The notes: a model not told the origin generated them from the sequence alone. A stretch of DNA of 60,454 nt from an uncultured Erysipelotrichaceae bacterium (GCA_902801685.1 CADCIZ010000002.1:1-60454); one strand, 5' to 3'; shown: positions 1 to 15,249, numbered from the stretch's first letter. Program-made: numbers and translations.

Positions 1-2
1 TA

Positions 3-458
3 ATTGGATATGATGATTCAAATACATTACTTAGATTAAATGGACAAGTTACAACGTTTGTTGATGGTAAATTAGTTGATAATGGTGAGACTATTAAAGT
101 AGATGATGTATTTATAGATGGTAAAGATACTACTGATATTGGAGATATGGTATTAAAAGATAGAGAATTATTATCAGATAATGGTATCGTAATTGTTACT
201 GCAACACTGGATAAAGCTACTAAAAATATTTTAGCGAGTCCAATTATTGTAACAAGAGGATTTGTTTATGTTAAAGATAATATTGATTTAATTAAAGAAG
301 CAGAAAAGATATCACTTAATGTATTAAAAGAAAATATTAGAGGTTACTATGTAGATTATAGCAAAGTTAAATATGGTATTCGCGAGAAACTAGGTAAGTT
401 TTTCTATAATGAAACTGAATGCAAACCAATGATAATAGTAGTAATGCAAGAAATATAA
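3..458 (+). CDS. rnj: Ribonuclease J, C-terminal part (truncated by window start)
   Basis: Frame open from base 3; VLKDRELLSDNGIVIV..PIIVTRGFVYVK..PMII matches the RNase J C-terminal domain. Confidence 0.8.
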   Translation: MGYDDSNTLLRLNGQVTTFVDGKLVDNGETIKVDDVFIDGKDTTDIGDMVLKDRELLSDNGIVIVTATLDKATKNILASPIIVTRGFVYVKDNIDLIKEAEKISLNVLKENIRGYYVDYSKVKYGIREKLGKFFYNETECKPMIIVVMQEI

Positions 459-521
459 AGTGTAATTTATTTACATTTTATTTTTCGTTTGTTATAATTT
501 ATTTGCTGGAGGGTTTTAAAT

Positions 522-1250
522 ATGAGTAATAAGACAATTAATAGTGATTCTGTATATGTAGGTAAGTTAGTTAAATTAAGTTTAATTGAAAGAAATGATG
601 ATACTAATTCTAAAGAAAAGTATATTGCAACAAACTATGAACCATATAGAAGTATTATTTTTACAATAGATAAAGATGGTTTGTGTAATGATTTGATATA
701 TGATTCACCTAAGTATGCAATTTTAAATCATACTAATGATGATGTATATTGGAGTATGTTATTAAAAGAGAATAAGCATTGGAATATTGAACCTAAGATA
801 GTTGTAATTGCTCCAATATGTATTGGGCCTTTATTACAAAAATTTAACTATAATAAAGAATTAACTATTGATGATATTAACAATATTAGAAAGAATATGT
901 TTAATAATAAATTTTTAGAGGAAAACTCTTTTACTTTTGGATATTACGAATATAGAGTGCCTCATTATACTTCTGTAAGTGTAATAGGGGAATCACGTTT
1001 TCATAAACCAACATATATCAAGAATAAAATTAGATATGCGTTATTTAGAAATTTTAAAGGAAAAATATATCGCATTGGACCAATAAAGAACTATGTAGAG
1101 ATGAATGAATATTGGAATGCAATAGAAACCTTTGGAAGCGATAATATATCAGATTTTTTAAAAAAAGGATTTAACGTTAGACTGAACTCTTTTAAACCAT
1201 CTAAAAAAGAAGGGAAGATTAAGATAAAAACAGTTTTAAACAAGTTTTAA
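522..1250 (+). CDS. Hypothetical protein (242 aa)
   Basis: Long ORF with GGAGG RBS; no recognised motif. Confidence 0.7.
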   Translation: MSNKTINSDSVYVGKLVKLSLIERNDDTNSKEKYIATNYEPYRSIIFTIDKDGLCNDLIYDSPKYAILNHTNDDVYWSMLLKENKHWNIEPKIVVIAPICIGPLLQKFNYNKELTIDDINNIRKNMFNNKFLEENSFTFGYYEYRVPHYTSVSVIGESRFHKPTYIKNKIRYALFRNFKGKIYRIGPIKNYVEMNEYWNAIETFGSDNISDFLKKGFNVRLNSFKPSKKEGKIKIKTVLNKF

Positions 1251-1288
1251 ATGGTAATAAAATTTATCAAAAGATACTTGGTAAAAGT

Positions 1289-1309
1289 AGAACGTAAGTT
1301 CTTTTTTTT
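1289..1309 (+). terminator. Intrinsic terminator
   Basis: AGAAC-GTAA-GTTCT hairpin followed by a T run. Confidence 0.55.
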
Positions 1310-1347
1310 ACATTAAAAACATGTTATAATCATTACAGGTGATGCAC

Positions 1348-2640
1348 ATGAAAGAAATAAAAATACAAAACTTAAAAGGAACAACTGATTATTTACCAGA
1401 AGAACAAGTGTTGAGAGATAAAATTATAAGTATATTAAAGAATAATTTTGAAGTATATGGATATATGCCTATAAAAACACCTATTTTAAATCAATATGAC
1501 CTGCTTAGTTATAAATATGATGAGGATGCGGAAATACTTAATGAAACTTATAAACTAACAGATCAAGGAAATCGTAAATTAGGTTTAAGATATGATCTTA
1601 CTATTCCGTTTTGTAAAGTAATTGCGCTTAATAAAGATTTACGTATGCCTTTTAAACGTTATGAAATAGGTAAGGTGTTTCGTAATGGTCCTGTTAAATT
1701 AGGTCGTATGAGAGAGTTTTATCAATGTGATGTTGATGTTGTTGGTATTGATAATCGTATGATTGAAATAGAACAATTAATAATGGTAAAAAAAGTATTT
1801 GATGAACTTGGTATTGATATAGTTATTAAATGGAATAATCGTAAATTAATGAGTGGATTAATTACATATTCAGGTATTAAAGAAGAATTAATTGATAAAG
1901 TTATATCTGTAATTGATCATAAAGAAAAAATAAGTAAATCTGAAATGATTAAAGAGTTTAATAAGATTGGTATTGATGATAATAAGGCTTTAAAAATACT
2001 TGATATATTTAATTTAAGTTTAGATGAATATAATGCTTCATTTAAAGATACTGATAATGAATTAATTAAAGAAGGATTAAAAGAGATTAATGAAATTAAT
2101 GATTTAATAAATAAGTGTAATCTTGCTGATAATACATTATTTACACCTAGTTTAGCTAGAGGATTAAGCATATATACAGGAATTGTATTTGAATTTTTTG
2201 ATAAAAAGAAACGCATATCAAGTTCTTTAGGTGGTGGAGGAAGATATAACAAAATCATTACTGATTTTATAGATGATGGTAATATCTATCCTGCATGTGG
2301 ACTTTCTTTTGGACTTGAACCAATATATGCAATTTTAAAAGAAGAATTATCTGATAACAGTTTAATAGATTGTCTTATTATTCCGATGGATACGGAAGTG
2401 GAGTCGCTAGTAGTTGCAACCACTCTTCGTAATAATGGTATTAAAGTATTGGTTGAAATGAATAAAAGAAAAATAAAGAAGAGCTTTGAATTTGCTGATA
2501 AAACTAATATTAAATATGTAATAGTAATTGGAGAAAACGAGGTTAAAGAAAGCAAGTATACATTGAAAAACATGCAATCAGGTAATCAAGAATTACTAAA
2601 TACTGATGAAATTATAAGTAAAATAAAAAATAATGGTTAA
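1348..2640 (+). CDS. hisS: Histidine--tRNA ligase
   Basis: KGTTDYLP, LRYDLTIP, FRNG..GRMREFYQCDVD, LARGLSIYTG, GGGGRYN motifs; start chosen after AGGTG RBS (ORF track opens at 1339). Confidence 0.95.
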   Translation: MKEIKIQNLKGTTDYLPEEQVLRDKIISILKNNFEVYGYMPIKTPILNQYDLLSYKYDEDAEILNETYKLTDQGNRKLGLRYDLTIPFCKVIALNKDLRMPFKRYEIGKVFRNGPVKLGRMREFYQCDVDVVGIDNRMIEIEQLIMVKKVFDELGIDIVIKWNNRKLMSGLITYSGIKEELIDKVISVIDHKEKISKSEMIKEFNKIGIDDNKALKILDIFNLSLDEYNASFKDTDNELIKEGLKEINEINDLINKCNLADNTLFTPSLARGLSIYTGIVFEFFDKKKRISSSLGGGGRYNKIITDFIDDGNIYPACGLSFGLEPIYAILKEELSDNSLIDCLIIPMDTEVESLVVATTLRNNGIKVLVEMNKRKIKKSFEFADKTNIKYVIVIGENEVKESKYTLKNMQSGNQELLNTDEIISKIKNNG

Positions 2641-2662
2641 GATATATTTACCCATTATTTTT
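2629..2662 (+). repeat. hisS stop/terminator hairpin, copy 1 of 3
   Basis: AATAATGGTTAA-gatatat-TTACCCATTATT-tttt; AATAATGGTTAA recurs at 3588 and 4523. Confidence 0.8.
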
Positions 2663-2670
2663 TTAATCAT

Positions 2671-3009
2671 TTAATTATTATCGTTTAACATACTCTCTAT
2701 AAGGGTATTAAAATCAGTTATCTTAGATAAAATAATTGATTTGCTTCTATTATCTTTTAATTTTATTTCAAATTTAAATCTATTATTATCTAGCTTTATT
2801 ATATACTCATATTTAAAATCATCATAATTAATTGTAAATACGAGTATTTCATCATTATCATTAATATATTCTACACGTTTTACATTTAAAATGTAATTAA
2901 CTATAATATCATAATTATTTTCATCACAGTATTTTAATATATATTTTTCAGTGTCTATTATAAGCTTTATCTGATTGTTTGTTAATATATTATTATCAAT
3001 ATTTTTCAT
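2671..3009 (-). CDS. Hypothetical protein
   Basis: ORF track 2671-3033; likely ATG at 3009 after purine-rich RBS. Confidence 0.55.
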   Translation of the reverse strand: MKNIDNNILTNNQIKLIIDTEKYILKYCDENNYDIIVNYILNVKRVEYINDNDEILVFTINYDDFKYEYIIKLDNNRFKFEIKLKDNRSKSIILSKITDFNTLIESMLNDNN

Positions 3010-3134
3010 AAATTCACTTCTTTCATACGTCACAAAGTCACATGTAGGTATAATTGTAATCTATTGTACCCAATTTGTCAATATAAAATATTTTTCTTTA
3101 ATCGTACTATATATTATATATAGGTTGTGATTAT

Positions 3135-3599
3135 GTGAGAAATAAATTAGGGAAGCTTCGAGAAAGAGCAAATGTAGATGCAAAATATGTATATGAGAAT
3201 ATAAATGTTACAAATGATATCTATTCAAAATGGGAAAATAATAAAAGAAAAGTACCTTTAAAATATATAATAGATATATGTAATTTGTTTGAAATTAAAC
3301 TAGATTATTTATTAAACTTGTCTGATAATATCGAAATATCAAAAATTAAATATAGTAGTGATAAAAAGAAGATAGGTAATAAATTAAAAGAAATAAGAAC
3401 TGATTTATCTATGAGTTTAAGAGAAGAATCTAAACTCACTGATATATCTTTTAATGCTTTATCTAGATATGAAAGAGGCATTAGATTAATATCAACGTCT
3501 GCATTAACTAAAATATCTATTAAGACTGGATACGATGTTAATTGGATATTAAGTGAGAAAAAAACTACTAAAAATAAAATTATACAAAATAATGGTTAA
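3135..3599 (+). CDS. XRE-family regulator with two HTH domains
   Basis: LGKLRE..YSKWENNKRKVP and LKEIR..LSRYERGIR, two Cro/C1-type HTHs. Confidence 0.85.
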   Translation: MRNKLGKLRERANVDAKYVYENINVTNDIYSKWENNKRKVPLKYIIDICNLFEIKLDYLLNLSDNIEISKIKYSSDKKKIGNKLKEIRTDLSMSLREESKLTDISFNALSRYERGIRLISTSALTKISIKTGYDVNWILSEKKTTKNKIIQNNG

Positions 3600-3616
3600 A
3601 CATATTAATCGTTATT
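3588..3616 (+). repeat. hisS-terminator-like hairpin, copy 2 of 3
   Basis: AATAATGGTTAA-acata-TTAATCGTTATT; supplies the NNG-stop end of the XRE gene, identical to the hisS end. Confidence 0.75.
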
Positions 3617-3752
3617 TATATATATGTAATTATATGGGATTGTCAAAATTTAACAATAAGGCACTATGCATCTTTTGTTGATAAGAAAATATATCTTAAT
3701 ATACAGATGAATTACTTTTTAAAAAACGAATATACTATTAGTGATATACTAT

Positions 3753-3781
3753 TTGACATTTTATATGTTTTATAGTATATT
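3753..3781 (+). promoter_or_regulatory. sigmaA-type promoter of toxIN
   Basis: TTGACA-17 nt-TATATT. Confidence 0.7.
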
Positions 3782-3816
3782 ATTATTGCATTAGAAATGC
3801 GAAATGAAAAAAAAGC

Positions 3817-3920
3817 TGGTGATTCCCACCATAAGAGGAACTTAAAAAAGAAGTGATTCCGACTTTGACAGGAACTTAAAAAAGCGGTGATCCCCACCAT
3901 AAGAGGAACTTAAAAAAGGA
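3817..3920 (+). ncRNA. toxI: ToxI-type RNA antitoxin, three 34-nt pseudoknot repeats
   Basis: GTGAT at 3819, 3853 and 3887 (period 34); stems TGGTG/CACCA and TTCC/GGAA; A-rich linker; lies upstream of terminator and toxN. Confidence 0.9.
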
Positions 3921-3944
3921 AACTAGAGAGCAAACTCTAGTTTT
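3920..3944 (+). terminator. Terminator between toxI and toxN
   Basis: AAACTAGAG-agcaaa-CTCTAGTTT plus T tail. Confidence 0.85.
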
Positions 3945-3984
3945 ATTATGTAATTTATTATATAATACTGTTGGAAGTGATTAC

Positions 3985-4488
3985 ATGAAAGAACAATTAA
4001 TGTTAGTCAGACTAGATACAAAGTATTGTGATTATTTAAGAACGTGTGATGATAAAGTACCTTATAATCATAATGAAAAAGAATTAAGACCATTTGTCGG
4101 CGTTTTATTTAGAATAAATAAATTAATGTATTTTGCCCCTTTATCAAGTCCTAAACCAAAACATTTGAAATTAAAATCTAAATTGGATTTTCTAAAAATA
4201 GATAATGGTAAATTAGGCGCAATTAATTTTAATAATATGTTGCCTGTTACTAAGAAGAATATAATAAAACTAAATTTAGATAAAGAATGCTTAACTAAAT
4301 CAGAAGAAAAGTATTCTAAACTATTAAAAGAACAAATATATTGGTTAAATCGTAATGATGAAAAGTTATATGGAAGATCTAAAAAACTGTATAATAAATA
4401 TATTAATGGCACATTAGATAAAAACATTGCTAAAAGATGTTGCAATTTTAAATTATTAGAAGGGAAATGTAAAGAATACAATGCATAA
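3985..4488 (+). CDS. toxN: Type III toxin-antitoxin endoribonuclease, ToxN/AbiQ family
   Basis: DDKVPYN..RPFVGVL..YFAPLSSPKPKH..LGAINFNNMLPV..CCNFKLLE; preceded by repeats and terminator. Confidence 0.92.
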   Translation: MKEQLMLVRLDTKYCDYLRTCDDKVPYNHNEKELRPFVGVLFRINKLMYFAPLSSPKPKHLKLKSKLDFLKIDNGKLGAINFNNMLPVTKKNIIKLNLDKECLTKSEEKYSKLLKEQIYWLNRNDEKLYGRSKKLYNKYINGTLDKNIAKRCCNFKLLEGKCKEYNA

Positions 4489-4522
4489 GCAATTATTAAA
4501 TTTTAAAAAGAATAAAACAAAC

Positions 4523-4556
4523 AATAATGGTTAAAATATAATTAATCATTATTTTT
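4523..4556 (+). repeat. hisS-terminator-like hairpin, copy 3 of 3
   Basis: AATAATGGTTAA-aatataa-TTAATCATTATT-ttt. Confidence 0.8.
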
Positions 4557-4649
4557 ATTATAGCCAATTTTTTGAAAATTATAATTTTGTAAATAAAAAG
4601 ATATAAGATGATAATAATAATCATGTAGTCTGTTGATAGGAGGATTTAT

Positions 4650-5633
4650 ATGTTTTTTAAAGGTAAAAACGTATATAATTTTATCTTAAGTCTTCTTCTA
4701 TTAATACCACTTAGACTATATGCATATTCAGACTATATAATTGCTAGTGGAGAGAATATTGGTATTAAACTTATGAGTGATGGTATTATTATTGTTGGTA
4801 CTTATGATGTTGGAGGCAATAATCCTGCAACTGAGGCTGGATTAAAAGTAGGAGATATTATTGAAAAAGTAGATAATACTGAAGTAAATAGTATTGATGA
4901 AATGATTGCTAAAATAAATGATTCTAGAAGTAATGATGTAAGTATTACTTATAAAAGGAATAATGAAATAAAAGATACTACGTTAAATCTAGATAAAACT
5001 AGTGGTAATGTAAAAACAGGAATATATGTAAAGGATTCTATTACTGGAATAGGCACTTTAACTTATATTGATCCTAAAACTAAAATTTTTGGTGCATTGG
5101 GTCATGAAATAGCAGATAGTTCTACTAAGAAAATACTAGATATTAATGGCGGAACTATATTTCCATCAACAGTAACAGGTATTGTTAAATCTGGAGATGG
5201 TAATCCTGGTGAGAAAAATGCTACATTTGATTTAAGTAAAACTGATGGTAATGTTCTTGAGAATACTAATAAAGGAATATTTGGTGAATATATAAGTGAT
5301 ATTGATGAATCTAAACTATATAAAGTTGCAGATTATAAAGATGTTAACTTAGGTAAGGCTAAAATAAAAACGGTATTAGCTGGCAATGAAGTAGGGGAGT
5401 ATGATATTAATATTATTAGTGTAACTAATAGTGATAAGATTAAAAATATTGTTTTTGAAATAACTGATAACGAATTACTTAATAAAACTAATGGTATTAT
5501 TCAAGGAATGAGTGGTAGTCCAATTATACAAGGTAAAAATATAGTTGGTGCGGTAACACATGTAGTAATAGATAATCCTTTAAAAGGATATGGTATACTT
5601 ATTACTAATATGCTAGAAGAAGGCGAAAACTAG
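4650..5633 (+). CDS. spoIVB: SpoIVB peptidase (S55) with PDZ domain
   Basis: GIYVKDSITGIGTLTY, FGALGHEI, GIIQGMSGSPIIQ, VGAVTHV. Confidence 0.92.
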   Translation: MFFKGKNVYNFILSLLLLIPLRLYAYSDYIIASGENIGIKLMSDGIIIVGTYDVGGNNPATEAGLKVGDIIEKVDNTEVNSIDEMIAKINDSRSNDVSITYKRNNEIKDTTLNLDKTSGNVKTGIYVKDSITGIGTLTYIDPKTKIFGALGHEIADSSTKKILDINGGTIFPSTVTGIVKSGDGNPGEKNATFDLSKTDGNVLENTNKGIFGEYISDIDESKLYKVADYKDVNLGKAKIKTVLAGNEVGEYDINIISVTNSDKIKNIVFEITDNELLNKTNGIIQGMSGSPIIQGKNIVGAVTHVVIDNPLKGYGILITNMLEEGEN

Positions 5634-5652
5634 AATGCTTAGGCATTCTTTT
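5631..5652 (+). repeat. spoIVB stop plus terminator; left direct repeat of RhuM-Fic islet
   Basis: TAGAATGCTTAGGCATTCTTTT; 20/22 identical to 6738-6759. Confidence 0.8.
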
Positions 5653-5792
5653 AAAATACTCTTGACTGTTAGTGAAAATAATGTATAATATTAGTTATTG
5701 GAAAGAAAACAAGTGAATGAATGATAAATGTTATATATAATTTATATAAGTCCAATATTTTAAATATTTAATTAATTTTAAAGGAGATTTAT

Positions 5793-6740
5793 ATGAAAAA
5801 TGAAATTGTGTTATTTAAAAATCAACATGTAAAATTAGAAGTTAATATGAAAGATGAAACTGTATGGTTAAATGCAGAACAAATGTCGTTATTATTTGAT
5901 AGAGACTATAAAACAATTAGAAAGCACATTAACAATGCGTTACAAGAAGAATTAGATAGTTCAACTGTCGCAAAATTTGCGACAGTTCAAAAAGAAGGAA
6001 ATAGGGAAGTTACACGTAACATTGAATACTATAATCTCGATGTGATTATAAGCGTTGGTTATCGTGTAAAATCCAAAAATGGTATTATATTTAGAAAATG
6101 GGCAAATAAAATCTTGAAAGATTATTTAATTAAAGGATATGCAGTTAATGAAAAAAGGCTTAAATATCTTGAAAAGACTATCAAATTAATTGATATTGCT
6201 GGTAGAATTGATACTGAATTAAAAGGAAGTGAAGCGCAGGAGATAATTAAAGTTATAAATAATTATTCAAATGCTTTAAACTTACTTGATGATTATGATC
6301 ACAAAAGGATTGTTAAGCCAAACGGAACTAAAAATAATAATAAAATAACTTATGAAGATTGTATGGATGTAATTAGTAAACTTAAGTTTAATAGTGATAG
6401 TAATTTATTTGCACTAGAGCGAAATGAAGGTTTGAAATCTATTATAGGTGCGATATATCAATCATATGATGGAGTTGATTTATATCCAACAATCGAAGAA
6501 AAAGCAGCAAACTTTTTATACCTAATAACTAAGAATCATACATTTATTGATGGTAATAAAAGAATAGCAGCAACACTATTTATATATTTTCTTGGAATAA
6601 ATAATATTTTATATAATAAAAACGAACAGATTATTGATAATAATACACTTGTTGCAGTTACACTGTTAATCGCACAATCTAATCCTAAAGAAAAGGATAT
6701 ATTAATAGATTTAGTTATGAATTTTTTAAATAGAAATTAG
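5793..6740 (+). CDS. RhuM-family domain fused to Fic/Doc domain
   Basis: ETVWLNAEQMSLLF..YNLDVIISVGYRVKS..FRKWA (RhuM); HTFIDGNKR (Doc-type motif). Confidence 0.88.
   Translation: MKNEIVLFKNQHVKLEVNMKDETVWLNAEQMSLLFDRDYKTIRKHINNALQEELDSSTVAKFATVQKEGNREVTRNIEYYNLDVIISVGYRVKSKNGIIFRKWANKILKDYLIKGYAVNEKRLKYLEKTIKLIDIAGRIDTELKGSEAQEIIKVINNYSNALNLLDDYDHKRIVKPNGTKNNNKITYEDCMDVISKLKFNSDSNLFALERNEGLKSIIGAIYQSYDGVDLYPTIEEKAANFLYLITKNHTFIDGNKRIAATLFIYFLGINNILYNKNEQIIDNNTLVAVTLLIAQSNPKEKDILIDLVMNFLNRN
5963..5987. repeat. 25-bp perfect intragenic palindrome
   Basis: AACTGTCGCAAA-A-TTTGCGACAGTT, 12-bp arms. Confidence 0.95.
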
Positions 6741-6759
6741 AATGCTGAGACATTCTTTT
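6738..6759 (+). repeat. Right direct repeat (stop plus terminator) of RhuM-Fic islet
   Basis: TAGAATGCTGAGACATTCTTTT. Confidence 0.8.
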
Positions 6760-6888
6760 TGTATATGGTTGATTTTTCTTGGAAAACATGTATAATAATT
6801 TACGGAAGAAGTACCTCAAATATAAAGATTATAAATAAATCACTTATTAATACTATTTAGTTTTTATTAAAAACATGATACAATATCT

Positions 6889-7848
6889 ATGGTGAGAGAA
6901 ATGTATGATTATATTATCGTTGGAGGTGGCATATATGGGAGATTAATTGCTTACAAGTTAACCAAAGAAAAATATAAAATCATGCTAGTAGATAAAAAGG
7001 ATTTATCTAAGGGTTATAAACTTAATTATATGATTATTACAAATTATAGTTATAATTTTTTATGTAATATGATAGATACTGATATTGATTCTTTTATTGT
7101 TAAGAATATAAATAGTATTACTATTAATAATAAAGATTATAAAACTAATAGATATGTTTTAAATATAAAGAAGTTAAATGAATATTTGCTTAATAATATA
7201 AAAAACAGTAAAAATAAAATACTTAGTAAATCTGTAATTGATAAATATGGTTTTAAAAATAATGAGTTAGTTATTAATAATAAAAAATATAAGTATAAAT
7301 ATTTAATTGGAGCAGATGGAACTTTATCGGAAGTTAGAATGAATAAAACAAGAAAGATTCAAAGGTTTAATGTTGCTGCTTATATTAAATATAAAAAGAA
7401 TAACGATAATATAATGGTTAAGTATAATAGTTCTAATAAATTATATGAAGAAATTATATCTGTTAGAACTAATAATATAATAAGAATTGTTAATAATAAA
7501 CGTAAGAATAATATTTTTAAAGAGTTAAATAATATAAAAAATAATTATAATATTAGCTCTAAGTGTGTTGATACTTATTTAATACCTAGAGGAGATGTTT
7601 TTATTAACAGTGATAATATCTATTTTATCGGTGATGCGAGTGGTTTAATTAATCCACTAACTAATTTATCTATGGATTATAATTTAAAGATAATTAGTAA
7701 GTTTCCTAGTATTAATAATAAGAATATTAAAAAGATAAAAAAGGATATTAAAATTAAAATGGTAGTAAGTAAATTAATATATTTACCTATTATAAATAAA
7801 TTAGTTTTTAAACTAATTAAGAAACTATGTAAGGAGGACATATGTTAA
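6889..7848 (+). CDS. FAD-dependent oxidoreductase, geranylgeranyl-reductase-like, divergent
   Basis: [26 protein letters not shown] motifs. Confidence 0.7.
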
Positions 7849-8243
7849 AAGAATTTAAAGAGTTTATCTCAAAAGGAAACGTTTTGGATCTTGCTGTTGG
7901 TGTTGTTATGGGAAGTGCTTTCTCTGGAATAGTTACTTCACTTGTTAATGATATTATCATGCCATTAGTTGGACTACTTATTGGAGGAATTGATTTTTCT
8001 GGAATGCATGCAACTGTAGGTGATGCTTCAATTACTTATGGTAATTTCATTCAAAATATTGTTAATTTCTTAATAATTGCACTTTCTATATTTATGTTTA
8101 TTAAATTTATAAATAGAATATCTAAGAAAGTTAAGAAAGAAGAAGAAAAAGAAGCTGAAGAAGAGAAAGTTGATCCACAAACAAAACTCCTTGAAGAAAT
8201 ACTTGTAGAACTTAAAAAAAGTAACAAAAAAAGCGCTAAATAA
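7842..8243 (+). CDS. mscL: Large-conductance mechanosensitive channel
   Basis: [45 protein letters not shown]. Confidence 0.97.
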
Positions 8244-12601: not shown

Positions 12602-12886
12602 ATATATTATCTCTATTGTGAATAATTAGATTGATTTTAAACTTCTGATGAGTAGTTGTTCACTAAATGTATTTTAAAGTTAGATCTTTTTTTCTTATAT
12701 TTAATAAAATGATCAATAATTAATAATAAATAAAAAAATATTTTTCGTAATATCTTTTAAATATAAAACTTAAAATTCATTAATATTATTAATTAATATA
12801 GATAATTAGTTAATAAAAATCAATTGTTTGAATAATAGATTAATATTAATATTCATTGTTTTAAACAAGAATGCAATTATCCTATA

Positions 12887-13942
12887 ATGTATATTATGTT
12901 AACTTCTATAAAAGAGATAAAAAGGAGTATGTGTGATGTGAAAAAAAGAATACTATATATAGATATAATAAAAGTATTTGCCCTACTATTTGTTATATTC
13001 AACCACTCTGATGATATACTTATATCTAGCAAGATGTATATTAGAATAATTCATAATAGCCTATTTTATTTATCTAAATCTGCTGTTCCATTATTTTTAA
13101 TGGTATCAGGCTCATTACTTATGGAGAAAAAAGATTCAATACCTAAGCTTATTAAAAGAATAATTAGAGTATTAATCCCACTAATTATAATTACAATTAT
13201 CTGGACTATGACTCATTCAAATGCTATTAATATACTAGGTATGATTGATCCTTTTAATGTTAATTATTTTCCTTATTGGTTATGGTATCTGCAAGCATTA
13301 TTATTACTATATATATTAATGCCATTAATTAGAATTATTACTTTAAAAAATAAAGATAAAAGTAGTTTTAAATATATAATTATTATACTTACATTATTAT
13401 CAAGTATAACATTTACAGTAGTTAACATAATATTTAAGAAAAATCAATTAGTTATCACTAACCTACTTCCTATGCCAATTCTTTATTTTATATATGGATA
13501 TATATTATCTAAAACAAATAACAAAAAAATAGTTAAAAATATAAGTTTTATTACGCTAATAATTGCAATTTCTATTCCAGCATATATCGCAACAAATTTA
13601 ATGCTAAAAAAACAATCTTATTTCTTTTTAGATGATTATCGTAATATATATACATTTATAATATCCACTTCCCTATTCATTATAATTAAGTATTATTTTG
13701 AAAAATATAGAAAAGAAAATATTTTTACTAAAGTAATAATTCATCTAAGCAATAATTCTTATGGTATATACTTATTACATGTATTTGTAATAGAATTAAT
13801 ATTAAAAACAGAGTTTATTAAACAGCTTATTGAATTTAATAAATTAGAAGGAATATTTGTACTAATTATCTTAGTAATTATTATACTCGATATAATAACA
13901 TCTATACTAAGGAAAATTCCAGGTATAAAAAAAATATTATAG
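12887..13942 (+). CDS. Acyltransferase 3 family membrane protein (surface-polymer O-acyltransferase)
   Basis: RILYIDIIK..NHS, AVPLFLMVSG, LWYL, SYGIYLLH; many TM segments; true start may be about 12929-12938. Confidence 0.85.
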   Translation: MYIMLTSIKEIKRSMCDVKKRILYIDIIKVFALLFVIFNHSDDILISSKMYIRIIHNSLFYLSKSAVPLFLMVSGSLLMEKKDSIPKLIKRIIRVLIPLIIITIIWTMTHSNAINILGMIDPFNVNYFPYWLWYLQALLLLYILMPLIRIITLKNKDKSSFKYIIIILTLLSSITFTVVNIIFKKNQLVITNLLPMPILYFIYGYILSKTNNKKIVKNISFITLIIAISIPAYIATNLMLKKQSYFFLDDYRNIYTFIISTSLFIIIKYYFEKYRKENIFTKVIIHLSNNSYGIYLLHVFVIELILKTEFIKQLIEFNKLEGIFVLIILVIIILDIITSILRKIPGIKKIL

Positions 13943-14373: not shown

Positions 14374-15249
14374 CTAATCACCATGTGGGTGAAAACTCTC
14401 AAATTCTTGTTTTAATTTTTCTGTTGATACATGTGTATATATTTGTGTGGTTGATATATCACTATGACCTAGTAACTCCTGAATTGTTCTTAAATCCGCA
14501 CCATTATTAATCATATGAGTTGCAAAAGAATGCCTTAATGTATGTGGGGATATATCTTTTTTTATATTATTATCTTGTGCTAGTTTCTTTATTATTTTAA
14601 AGAATCCTTGTCTAGTCATTTTTTTGCCATGATTATTTAAAAACAAGTAATCATTTATCTCTTTTTTTAAAAATGTATATCTAATAGATAGATAACTATT
14701 TAATGCATTAGTTGCATATTCTCCAATAGGAATAATCCGCTCTTTATTCCCCTTCCCCATTGTTCTAACTATATTTTCTAAAGTATCTATATCGTATGTT
14801 TTAAGATTAATTAATTCAGATACTCTAAGTCCTGCTGCATATATTAATTCTAACATAGCTTTATTACGAACACTATAATTATCTGTTATTTTTATATCTA
14901 ATATCTTATTTATTTCATCAATAGTAAGTATATCTGGTAACTTTTTTGATAATTTAATACTAGTTATATTTTCCATAGGATTAGTTTTAACATGTTTATT
15001 TATAATTAGAAACTTATAAAAAGATCTTAGTGATGAGGTATTTCTTGCAATGCTACGTTCATTATGCTTGTTATCTTTTAAATACTTTAAATAATTTTTA
15101 ATATCACTATCATCTATATTATTAATAGTTTTATTTACAAATTTATTAAACATTTCTAAATCATTTCTATAAGCATCAATTGTATTTTTACTATAATTCT
15201 TATCGATTAGTAAATATGTACAAAACTCATTAATTAAATCATCTAACAT
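14374..15249 (-). CDS. xerD: Tyrosine recombinase XerD
   Basis: LELIYAAGLRVSEL, GKGNKER, SPHTLRHSFATH, IQELLGHSDISTTQIYTH, HP at C-terminus. Confidence 0.88.
   Translation of the reverse strand: MLDDLINEFCTYLLIDKNYSKNTIDAYRNDLEMFNKFVNKTINNIDDSDIKNYLKYLKDNKHNERSIARNTSSLRSFYKFLIINKHVKTNPMENITSIKLSKKLPDILTIDEINKILDIKITDNYSVRNKAMLELIYAAGLRVSELINLKTYDIDTLENIVRTMGKGNKERIIPIGEYATNALNSYLSIRYTFLKKEINDYLFLNNHGKKMTRQGFFKIIKKLAQDNNIKKDISPHTLRHSFATHMINNGADLRTIQELLGHSDISTTQIYTHVSTEKLKQEFESFHPHGD

Follow-up and report, generated by a model that had tools for sequence, protein, structure and literature searches.

Stacked gene modules between hisS and spoIVB of an uncultured Erysipelotrichaceae bacterium, each closed by a copy of the hisS 3′-terminal hairpin

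Between the genes hisS and spoIVB of an uncultured Erysipelotrichaceae bacterium lie two small gene modules, one behind the other, and each ends in a copy of the hairpin that closes hisS. The modules are part of a stretch of 60,454 nucleotides (GCA_902801685.1 CADCIZ010000002.1:1-60454), which in its full length is here called the window, and the second of them is a complete toxIN toxin-antitoxin system (Table 1). The left arm of the hisS terminator hairpin consists of the last four codons of the gene (AAT AAT GGT TAA), and this 12-mer, AATAATGGTTAA, recurs where each module stops. The explanation we favour, to which we assign a probability of roughly one half, is attachment-site accretion, in which a trans-acting recombinase would have stacked the modules at the 3′ end of hisS.

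Exact copies of the 12-mer start at 2629, 3588 and 4523, all on the + strand and within 1.9 kb, at start-to-start distances of 959 and 935 nt. A preliminary description of this DNA had reported the three copies, each with a hairpin partner and about 0.95 kb apart, and the count is well above chance: in 100 dinucleotide-shuffled versions of the window the mean number of matches was 0.04, and none of the 100 reached three. Each copy pairs with a right arm downstream. Copies 1 and 3 are 84% alike across 49 nt; copies 2 and 3 have a core of 13 nt in common, AATAATGGTTAAA, and their sequences diverge directly after it. The source assembly (G000; 1,310,184 bases in 75 contigs, 26.5% G+C, 91.69% complete, so that a gene may be absent from it) contains four exact 12-mers on both strands, the fourth, at C6:39587, being without a hairpin partner. 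A relaxed scan of this assembly, with up to two mismatches in the left arm and three in the right, gave no further true hairpin copy, and a sample of 200 other genomes of the same order does not contain the exact hairpin pattern. In this lineage the motif is therefore not a generic terminator, and the many genome copies that would mark a generic terminator or a dispersed repeat resembling repetitive extragenic palindromes are lacking. What is present is the arrangement characteristic of accretion, direct repeats holding the 3′ end of the target gene on either side of each unit. A genome-wide search for further hairpin-bearing short direct repeats, spaced 250-6000 bp, returned 104 pairs, mostly paralogous coding repeats or the ends of insertion sequences (C61), and none of the 104 shares the hisS core. 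On C61 (646-2243) a 91-nt direct repeat, 99% identical and with a hairpin, flanks a 427-residue open reading frame (ORF) that is transposase-like by eye, as is the adjoining ORF of 488 residues.

The junctions between modules recur in independent data. A separate metagenome contig (L028, HisS 98% identical) repeats the array of the window, and all three copies are spanned by Logan contigs of other studies, without differences at copy 1 (X19 record 18, 2431-2795) or at copy 2 (X12 record 5, X19 record 19) and with 2 differences at copy 3 (X20 record 30, 4332-4652), so that the junctions are not an assembly artefact.

We compared the hisS-spoIVB interval in all seven other species representatives of the genus and in 80 metagenome loci that were kept, six of which (L028-L033) have a HisS at least 72% identical. 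In the sister species, G003, the order is hisS, copy 1, module 1 (DNA 90% identical), a single terminal copy and spoIVB, with precisely the 935-bp toxIN module missing. Alignments to G003:C72 cover query positions 1-2283 and then 3166-3436 with an overlap of 55 nt, which places the breakpoint inside the 13 nt common to copies 2 and 3. A single unit is in this way present or absent with its breakpoint inside the repeat. Different cargo in related genomes, which had been proposed as a check, is also seen. The 4.1 kb interval of G002 carries HIT, NUDIX and two unannotated genes (p380 and p595, of 380 and 595 residues); there hisS ends in a variant arm, AAAAATAGTTAA, for which the right arm compensates perfectly, and an exact 12-mer hairpin stands directly before spoIVB. 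In L029 HIT and NUDIX alone (about 1.06 kb) lie between a proximal and a terminal copy. In L032 module 1 and a terminal copy are followed by other genes; L033 and L030 have hisS followed by a module 1 homologue, their contigs ending within the XRE gene (L033) or near its start (L030), before a second copy. G007 and G005 have empty sites with hisS-spoIVB gaps of 50 and about 140 bp, L031 is empty also, in G001 and G006 a different gene follows hisS and spoIVB is on a separate contig, and G004 gave no hisS match. In G234 (L157) the terminal copy and spoIVB stand behind a five-gene block and hisS is elsewhere, next to a tRNA gene. We note that in G234 (L157/L159) SpoIVB and the RhuM/Fic protein are 86% identical to those of the window at the amino acid level and HisS, on another contig, 61%, a pattern that points either to transfer of the spoIVB region or to a mixed bin.

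Several of these states share one boundary. Copy 3 and its flank to about position 4600 are conserved before spoIVB in G003, L029, G002, L032 and L157. When seven distal copies are aligned on the 12-mer, 20 of the 21 pairs show no relationship over the 30 nt on its left side (11-16 positions alike), the sole alike pair (26/30) being the orthologous G000 copy 2 and G003 terminal copy, whereas conservation on the right side extends over the hairpin and the leader of spoIVB. Five cargo ends abut the same 12-mer, those of XRE, toxIN, NUDIX, p595 and the L157 five-gene block, and module sizes are alike at 959, 935 and approximately 1,060 bp. At least three separate events, each with a new core duplication and a new right arm, appear to have taken place, namely module 1, HIT with NUDIX (L029, G002) and toxIN. 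It is chiefly this recurrence of the duplication at one and the same 12-mer that speaks for recombination at a specific core over random joining. In addition, the right end of toxIN resembles the hisS 3′ coding end beyond the core, over the 49 nt described above, as expected of an attP that mimics attB. The repeated insertion at one terminator proposed in the preliminary description is partly upheld: the three copies bound discrete modules, toxIN is precisely absent from G003 with a breakpoint in the repeat, and at least five cargo ends lie at the 12-mer. It is not upheld for one indel, which has a repeat on one side only. Module 1 itself has mostly been inherited vertically, since its divergence keeps step with that of HisS (95, 85 and 83% identity for HisS, 70, 54 and 50% for the orphan protein that the module encodes).

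The hairpins are well formed as RNA. Copy 1 folds at -10 kcal/mol (z -3.14) on the + strand and at -10.4 kcal/mol (z -3.74) on the - strand, and can therefore also terminate the convergent gene behind it. For copy 2 the + strand value is -9 kcal/mol (z -3.53), with z -0.39 on the - strand, and for copy 3 the + strand value is -7.8 kcal/mol (z -3.93). Across 14 copies 165 of the 168 stem cells pair in the + strand RNA, 16 of them as G.U, and the proximal copy of G002 and L029 has two compensatory double changes. G.U pairs work in + strand RNA and would be mismatches on the other strand. Pairing that is kept with the help of G.U, around loops of variable length, indicates that the hairpins are selected as intrinsic terminators, predicted from these patterns to act in + strand RNA. 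The stem-loop, U-tract and conserved structure expected of Rho-independent terminators are all present, the U-tract of copy 2 being weak; a terminator scan leaves out copies 1-3 since it asks for three G-C pairs. Two consequences follow. Because loops differ between copies, the crossover of a classical two-armed core site cannot be the loop. Because the hisS stop codon is inside the stem, an insertion that keeps hairpins on both sides must duplicate the core and supply a new right arm.

On this basis the hisS-spoIVB spacer would be an insertion hotspot with a recombination core of 12-13 nt, AATAATGGTTAA(A), which supplies both the final four hisS codons and the left arm in the intrinsic terminator of that gene. 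Autonomous modules of about 1 kb with their own promoters would be added one behind another by recombination within this core. The left end of a module would bring the loop, right arm and U-tract, the right end a copy of the core, so that every junction is again a complete hairpin, and the rebuilt hairpin would terminate the upstream gene and insulate the next unit. The direct repeats would then permit clean loss or gain of single modules. The enzyme may be of the tyrosine-recombinase type, acting in trans, and the modules either recombinase-less riders or worn-down remains. We infer the site-specificity of the events, the type of enzyme and the direction in which each event went.

Is there a recombinase that could do this? 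No recombinase domain was found in window positions 1-8000, and the statement in the preliminary description that no integrase or transposase lies inside the interval is confirmed by domain search. The nearest tyrosine recombinase, encoded 10 kb away (14374-15249, -), scores as a XerD equivalog (366.6 bits, cut-off 329.6), a housekeeping enzyme, and fails the integron-integrase model (158.3 bits, cut-off 265). Other PF00589 matches are on contigs C74, C72 and C44 of G000, and the other recombinase genes of that assembly comprise a 426-residue integrase frame (C74), two integrase fragments and three large serine recombinases (C10, C32 and C55); G000 has no Y1 transposase and no Cas1. A cognate recombinase, in cis or on a helper element with the same core, was not found in these assemblies, which are incomplete. 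A literature search on hisS as an attachment site gave nothing relevant among the matches listed.

Several of our observations count against accretion by a recombinase in trans. No core-like site lies near the other recombinase genes of G000, no recombinase was found within or next to the interval in any of the occupied states (G000, G003, G002, L028-L033 and L157), and there is none among 34 of 54 candidate ORFs, which were chosen by hand and come from L157 and from 12 of 19 loci, more distant relatives included, in which the region behind hisS was screened. Loops of 0-10 nt are at odds with a two-armed double-strand site of fixed spacer. The p380-p595 indel that distinguishes G002 from L029 has the repeat at its right boundary only and none at the left. 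The absence of toxIN from G003 is explained equally well by loss through short-repeat deletion as by gain in G000. Empty sites in relatives had been proposed as a check and do occur (G007, L031 and G005), but they have a different hisS terminator in place of the single copy expected, and no unoccupied copy of the exact site was seen among the relatives examined. The sole hint of ongoing polymorphism is a weak contig joint in X13 (3493 to 4523, with a side of 30 and intervening content not known), which is compatible with a toxIN-less form and proves nothing. We caution that public read data were searched as short Logan contigs, which drop rare forms, and circles or rare deletions are invisible there.

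The locus may alternatively be viewed as needing no dedicated recombinase. It would then be a hotspot of the minimal-mobile-element type, where strains exchange cargo through homologous recombination in hisS and spoIVB, with hairpins duplicated by replication slippage or template switching, to which a hairpin prone to stalling would be open, or by short-homology recombination, and with selection for terminators on both genes. The lack of a cis recombinase in any relative examined, the one-sided indel and the mostly vertical descent of module 1 all suit such an origin. So does the clear selection on the hairpins as RNA terminators, given that a stop codon within the stem means that only insertions rebuilding hairpins on both sides are tolerated. 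What speaks against it is that at least three independent events gave the same duplication with a boundary at the same 12-mer, when template switching or illegitimate joining should scatter breakpoints. In addition, the sequences of copies 2 and 3 part immediately beyond the 13-nt core, where a fresh target duplication would be identical, a discrepancy for which greater age could account. We regard a passive origin as doubtful but deserving of consideration. Chance likeness of AT-rich terminators, or an assembly artefact, might be suggested by the low G+C content and by same-arm hairpins that arise by chance in L120 and L123. It is effectively refuted by the shuffles, by the 84% likeness of copies 1 and 3, by the L028 array and by the contigs bridging all three junctions; moreover the 13-nt core is shorter than any assembler word and cannot cause a chimeric join.

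The preliminary description had called the array integron-like, and a true integron analogue would have attC-like hairpins recognised as folded single-stranded DNA by a dedicated recombinase, with the hisS terminator as attI. Each module, once circularised, would indeed have a single imperfect hairpin, one arm of it conserved and the loop variable in length, as in attC, and the array is co-linear with modules of similar size. Against this, G000 has no IntI (with the incompleteness of the assembly borne in mind), its best tyrosine recombinase being the XerD equivalog already described. The modules have their own promoter-like sites and genes on both strands and are not co-oriented promoterless cassettes. 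In the 12-bp stem, with its one sequence-invariant arm, neither R/L box pairs nor extrahelical bases can be made out, the G.U bias indicates + strand RNA and not a folded DNA strand, and no genome seen has more than three sites. The integron-like character is therefore not sustained, and we consider a true analogue quite improbable. Still less credit can be given to modules driven by host Xer recombination (the IMEX/pdif type), in which XerD would recombine dif-like sites flanking the modules. The presence of XerD, sites built as inverted repeats around an AT-rich centre and the lack of a recombinase in the modules would fit, but the copies mismatch the Bacillus dif motif at 11-13 of 28 positions, lack dif-like arms and have spacers of 0-10 nt where Xer sites need a fixed 6-8. 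Identity of the copies with dif is rejected on these grounds, and better dif-like candidates exist elsewhere. These are 28-mers at window 12877-12904, 1.5 kb from the XerD gene, and at G000 C42:7084, with 6 and 7 mismatches, respectively, to that motif.

Attachment-site accretion has known counterparts. Composite islands of the staphylococcal cassette chromosome (SCC) at the 3′ end of rlmH (orfX) include recombinase-less pseudo-SCC elements. There too modules are stacked at the end of a housekeeping gene between direct repeats that hold the gene end, single modules can be lost, and some elements without a recombinase rely on one in trans. SCC elements measure several to tens of kb, compared with about 1 kb here, and in our case no Ccr-type or other recombinase was found nearby and the repeat is also a working terminator stem. 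Cis-mobilizable elements (CIMEs) arising by site-specific accretion, for example with ICESt1 and ICESt3 at the fda 3′ end of Streptococcus thermophilus, resemble the locus in consisting of integrase-less DNA between att sites, tandem integration at one site giving three direct repeats. The present units are an order of magnitude smaller, and for this core we know of no helper element with a cognate integrase. Integration into the icd 3′ end by e14 and phage 21 similarly brackets an insert with a duplicated core-gene end, but involves one insert and a known phage integrase family, whereas here two to three units are stacked with no known integrase. Tycheposon islands of Prochlorococcus are arrays of cargo segments with incomplete copies of the target in between, and many of the segments have no recombinase; the targets there are tRNA genes, and the tyrosine recombinases have been identified. 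In minimal mobile elements of Neisseria, different whole-gene cassettes occupy the space between the same conserved genes without mobility genes, as strain-variable cassettes do here, but they are not bounded by duplicated ends of the flanking gene. With integrons the locus has in common a linear array of small, recombinase-less units, each ending in an imperfect palindrome of variable length with one conserved arm. It differs from them in lacking IntI, attI and the promoter Pc, in its own promoter-like sites and mixed orientation, and in a 12-bp stem that appears to be selected as an RNA terminator. The locus is set apart from the accretion systems by units of about 1 kb, by having no recombinase in sight and by a site that is a working terminator.

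If a site-specific enzyme makes the junctions, this would be accretion of very small, recombinase-less islands at an attachment site that is a working terminator, and every insertion would automatically remain transcriptionally insulated. Gut bacteria with reduced genomes would have a tidy route for swapping phage-defence and toxin-antitoxin units, such as toxIN and the RhuM/Fic candidate beyond spoIVB, and the core sequence is a concrete handle toward the recombinase. If no enzyme is involved, the locus would be a clean example of a stop codon in a terminator stem limiting which insertions survive.

A bolder extension, which we consider unlikely, is a chromosomal cassette system without an integron integrase, in which the terminator doubles as attachment site, the right arms are attC-like and a trans-acting or host recombinase stacks and sheds defence and accessory cassettes in small-genome gut Bacilli. 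Were this so, hairpins with the same arms before cassette-like genes in the Onthousia group could represent the same system in another lineage. Hairpins with exactly the same two arms occur, one to four per genome, in other low-G+C gut Bacilli: L110, L121, L125 and L136 (Candidatus Onthousia faecipullorum), L130, and the uncultured Bacilli metagenome-assembled genomes L113, L116, L119, L137, L139 and L146. In these genomes TGTAA precedes most copies, a T-run follows, and a promoter-like stretch lies downstream of most. The gene upstream of the hairpin is usually an unrelated one, and the gene on the other side usually belongs to a family of paralogous membrane or surface proteins; no array within 4 kb was seen. 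A gene that is TnpB-like by eye follows the hairpin in L137 and L130. The same two arms are also met by chance in unrelated taxa, as in L120 and L123.

Table 1. Features of the window in and around the hisS-spoIVB interval (coordinates counted from the first nucleotide of the window)
Feature	Position	Strand	Details
RNase J C-terminus	3-458		
Unannotated gene, 242 residues, between rnj and hisS	522-1250		
hisS (histidyl-tRNA synthetase)	1339-2640	+	Pfam tRNA-synt_His E 5.3e-39, HGTP_anticodon E 6.9e-15; translation
Repeat copy 1	2619-2667	+	12-mer 2629-2640, loop 7 nt, right arm to 2659, then T-run
Module 1 gene A, orphan protein	2671-3033	-	
Module 1 divergent promoter region	3034-3134		promoter-like TTGACA-17-TACAAT at 3081-3053 (-), consensus match only
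Module 1 gene B, XRE-type regulator with two helix-turn-helix (HTH) domains	3135-3599	+	HTH_3 E 5e-17, two stretches
Repeat copy 2	3581-3616	+	12-mer 3588-3599, loop 5 nt, right arm TTAATCGTTATT, weak U-tract
toxIN module, extent of the unit present or absent	3600-4534	+	935 bp, absent in G003, bounded by 13 nt common to copies 2 and 3
toxIN promoter-like site	3753-3781	+	TTGACA-17-TATATT, consensus match only
toxI antitoxin RNA repeats	3810-3918	+	3 copies, 34-nt spacing, 78-100% identity
Hairpin between toxI and toxN	3920-3943		reported on - strand; stem is a near-palindrome
toxN (ToxN/AbiQ endoribonuclease toxin)	3985-4488	+	PF13958 E 5.9e-48; PADLOC AbiQ 6.2e-39
Repeat copy 3, terminal copy	4513-4561	+	12-mer 4523-4534, loop 7 nt, right arm TTAATCATTATT, then T-run
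spoIVB (S55 peptidase, PDZ domain), right-hand core gene of the hotspot	4650-5633	+	Peptidase_S55 E 1e-67
RhuM/Fic gene directly behind spoIVB	5793-6740		PADLOC candidate defence family PDC-S23, E 3.7e-124

Searches of Pfam and PADLOC together with a repeat search agree with the gene content first described, a hypothetical gene plus a divergent double-HTH gene in module 1 and a complete toxIN in module 2. The orphan protein of module 1 (112-120 residues) has no Pfam, NCBIfam or PADLOC match and appears lineage-restricted, with seven related clusters among 5.8 billion. Its AlphaFold2 model (mean predicted local distance difference test score 84.8) suggests a helix, five β strands and a second helix. 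Foldseek gave no PDB match at E ≤ 0.001, the ESM Atlas no usable match, and the best VIA-align Z score of 8.2 is at background level. The XRE protein matches PADLOC HTH_VI (1e-13) and an NCBIfam RstR-family model (3e-12, below the cut-off of that model). Its last three codons and stop fall in repeat copy 2, so that the HisS C-terminus (KNNG) and its own (QNNG) both end in NNG before the stop. The preliminary description had drawn attention to these endings, which are correct, but the likeness is an incidental by-product, because the XRE gene of G003 has a TAA stop immediately before the 12-mer and that of L032 stops within the 12-mer in a different frame. The window has CAA where G003 has TAA, and translation continues into the repeat.

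The second module has what a type III toxin-antitoxin system would be expected to have, a ToxN-family toxin, tandem toxI repeats and one promoter-like site, and by family assignment toxIN/AbiQ is a putative abortive-infection system. Rfam gave no match in window positions 1-8000, the toxI repeats included. In G004 a toxIN 82% identical to that of the window lies at another locus, beside Abi_2 and Schlafen/AlbA_2 genes and without hairpin copies, which indicates that the toxIN unit moves by other routes too. A blastn search with the module matched four plasmid and two phage records, in the toxN coding sequence only (68-82% identity) and with no flanks in common with the module. Viral contigs gave one distant ToxN relative (42%) and 14 pattern matches, none with hisS-spoIVB-like flanks; 11 of the 14 have one common flanking sequence (42-47% G+C) and the other three each differ.

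G000 has a second locus resembling a type III system, at C45:9383-10133, with a different repeat and toxin. It has in common with the window a promoter region of about 90 nt (window 3709-3798, 82% identity), to which stretches in G003:C26 and G011:C40 are also similar, and sits between repeated copies of a small glycine-rich gene and its terminator. A further toxN-like frame (G000 C10:8300-8800, 70% DNA identity to toxN of the window) directly follows two tRNA genes and appears to be interrupted by a stop.

With toxIN on one side of spoIVB and the RhuM/Fic gene on the other, the stretch forms a small defence cluster. Public runs that contain it are bovine and sheep gut metagenomes (20 of the 24 runs listed, from 12 studies). 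On the other side of hisS, the unannotated gene at 522-1250 is variable, being present in G003, L028 and L032 (50% amino acid identity) and absent from L029, L030 and L031; no duplicated terminator was seen around it.

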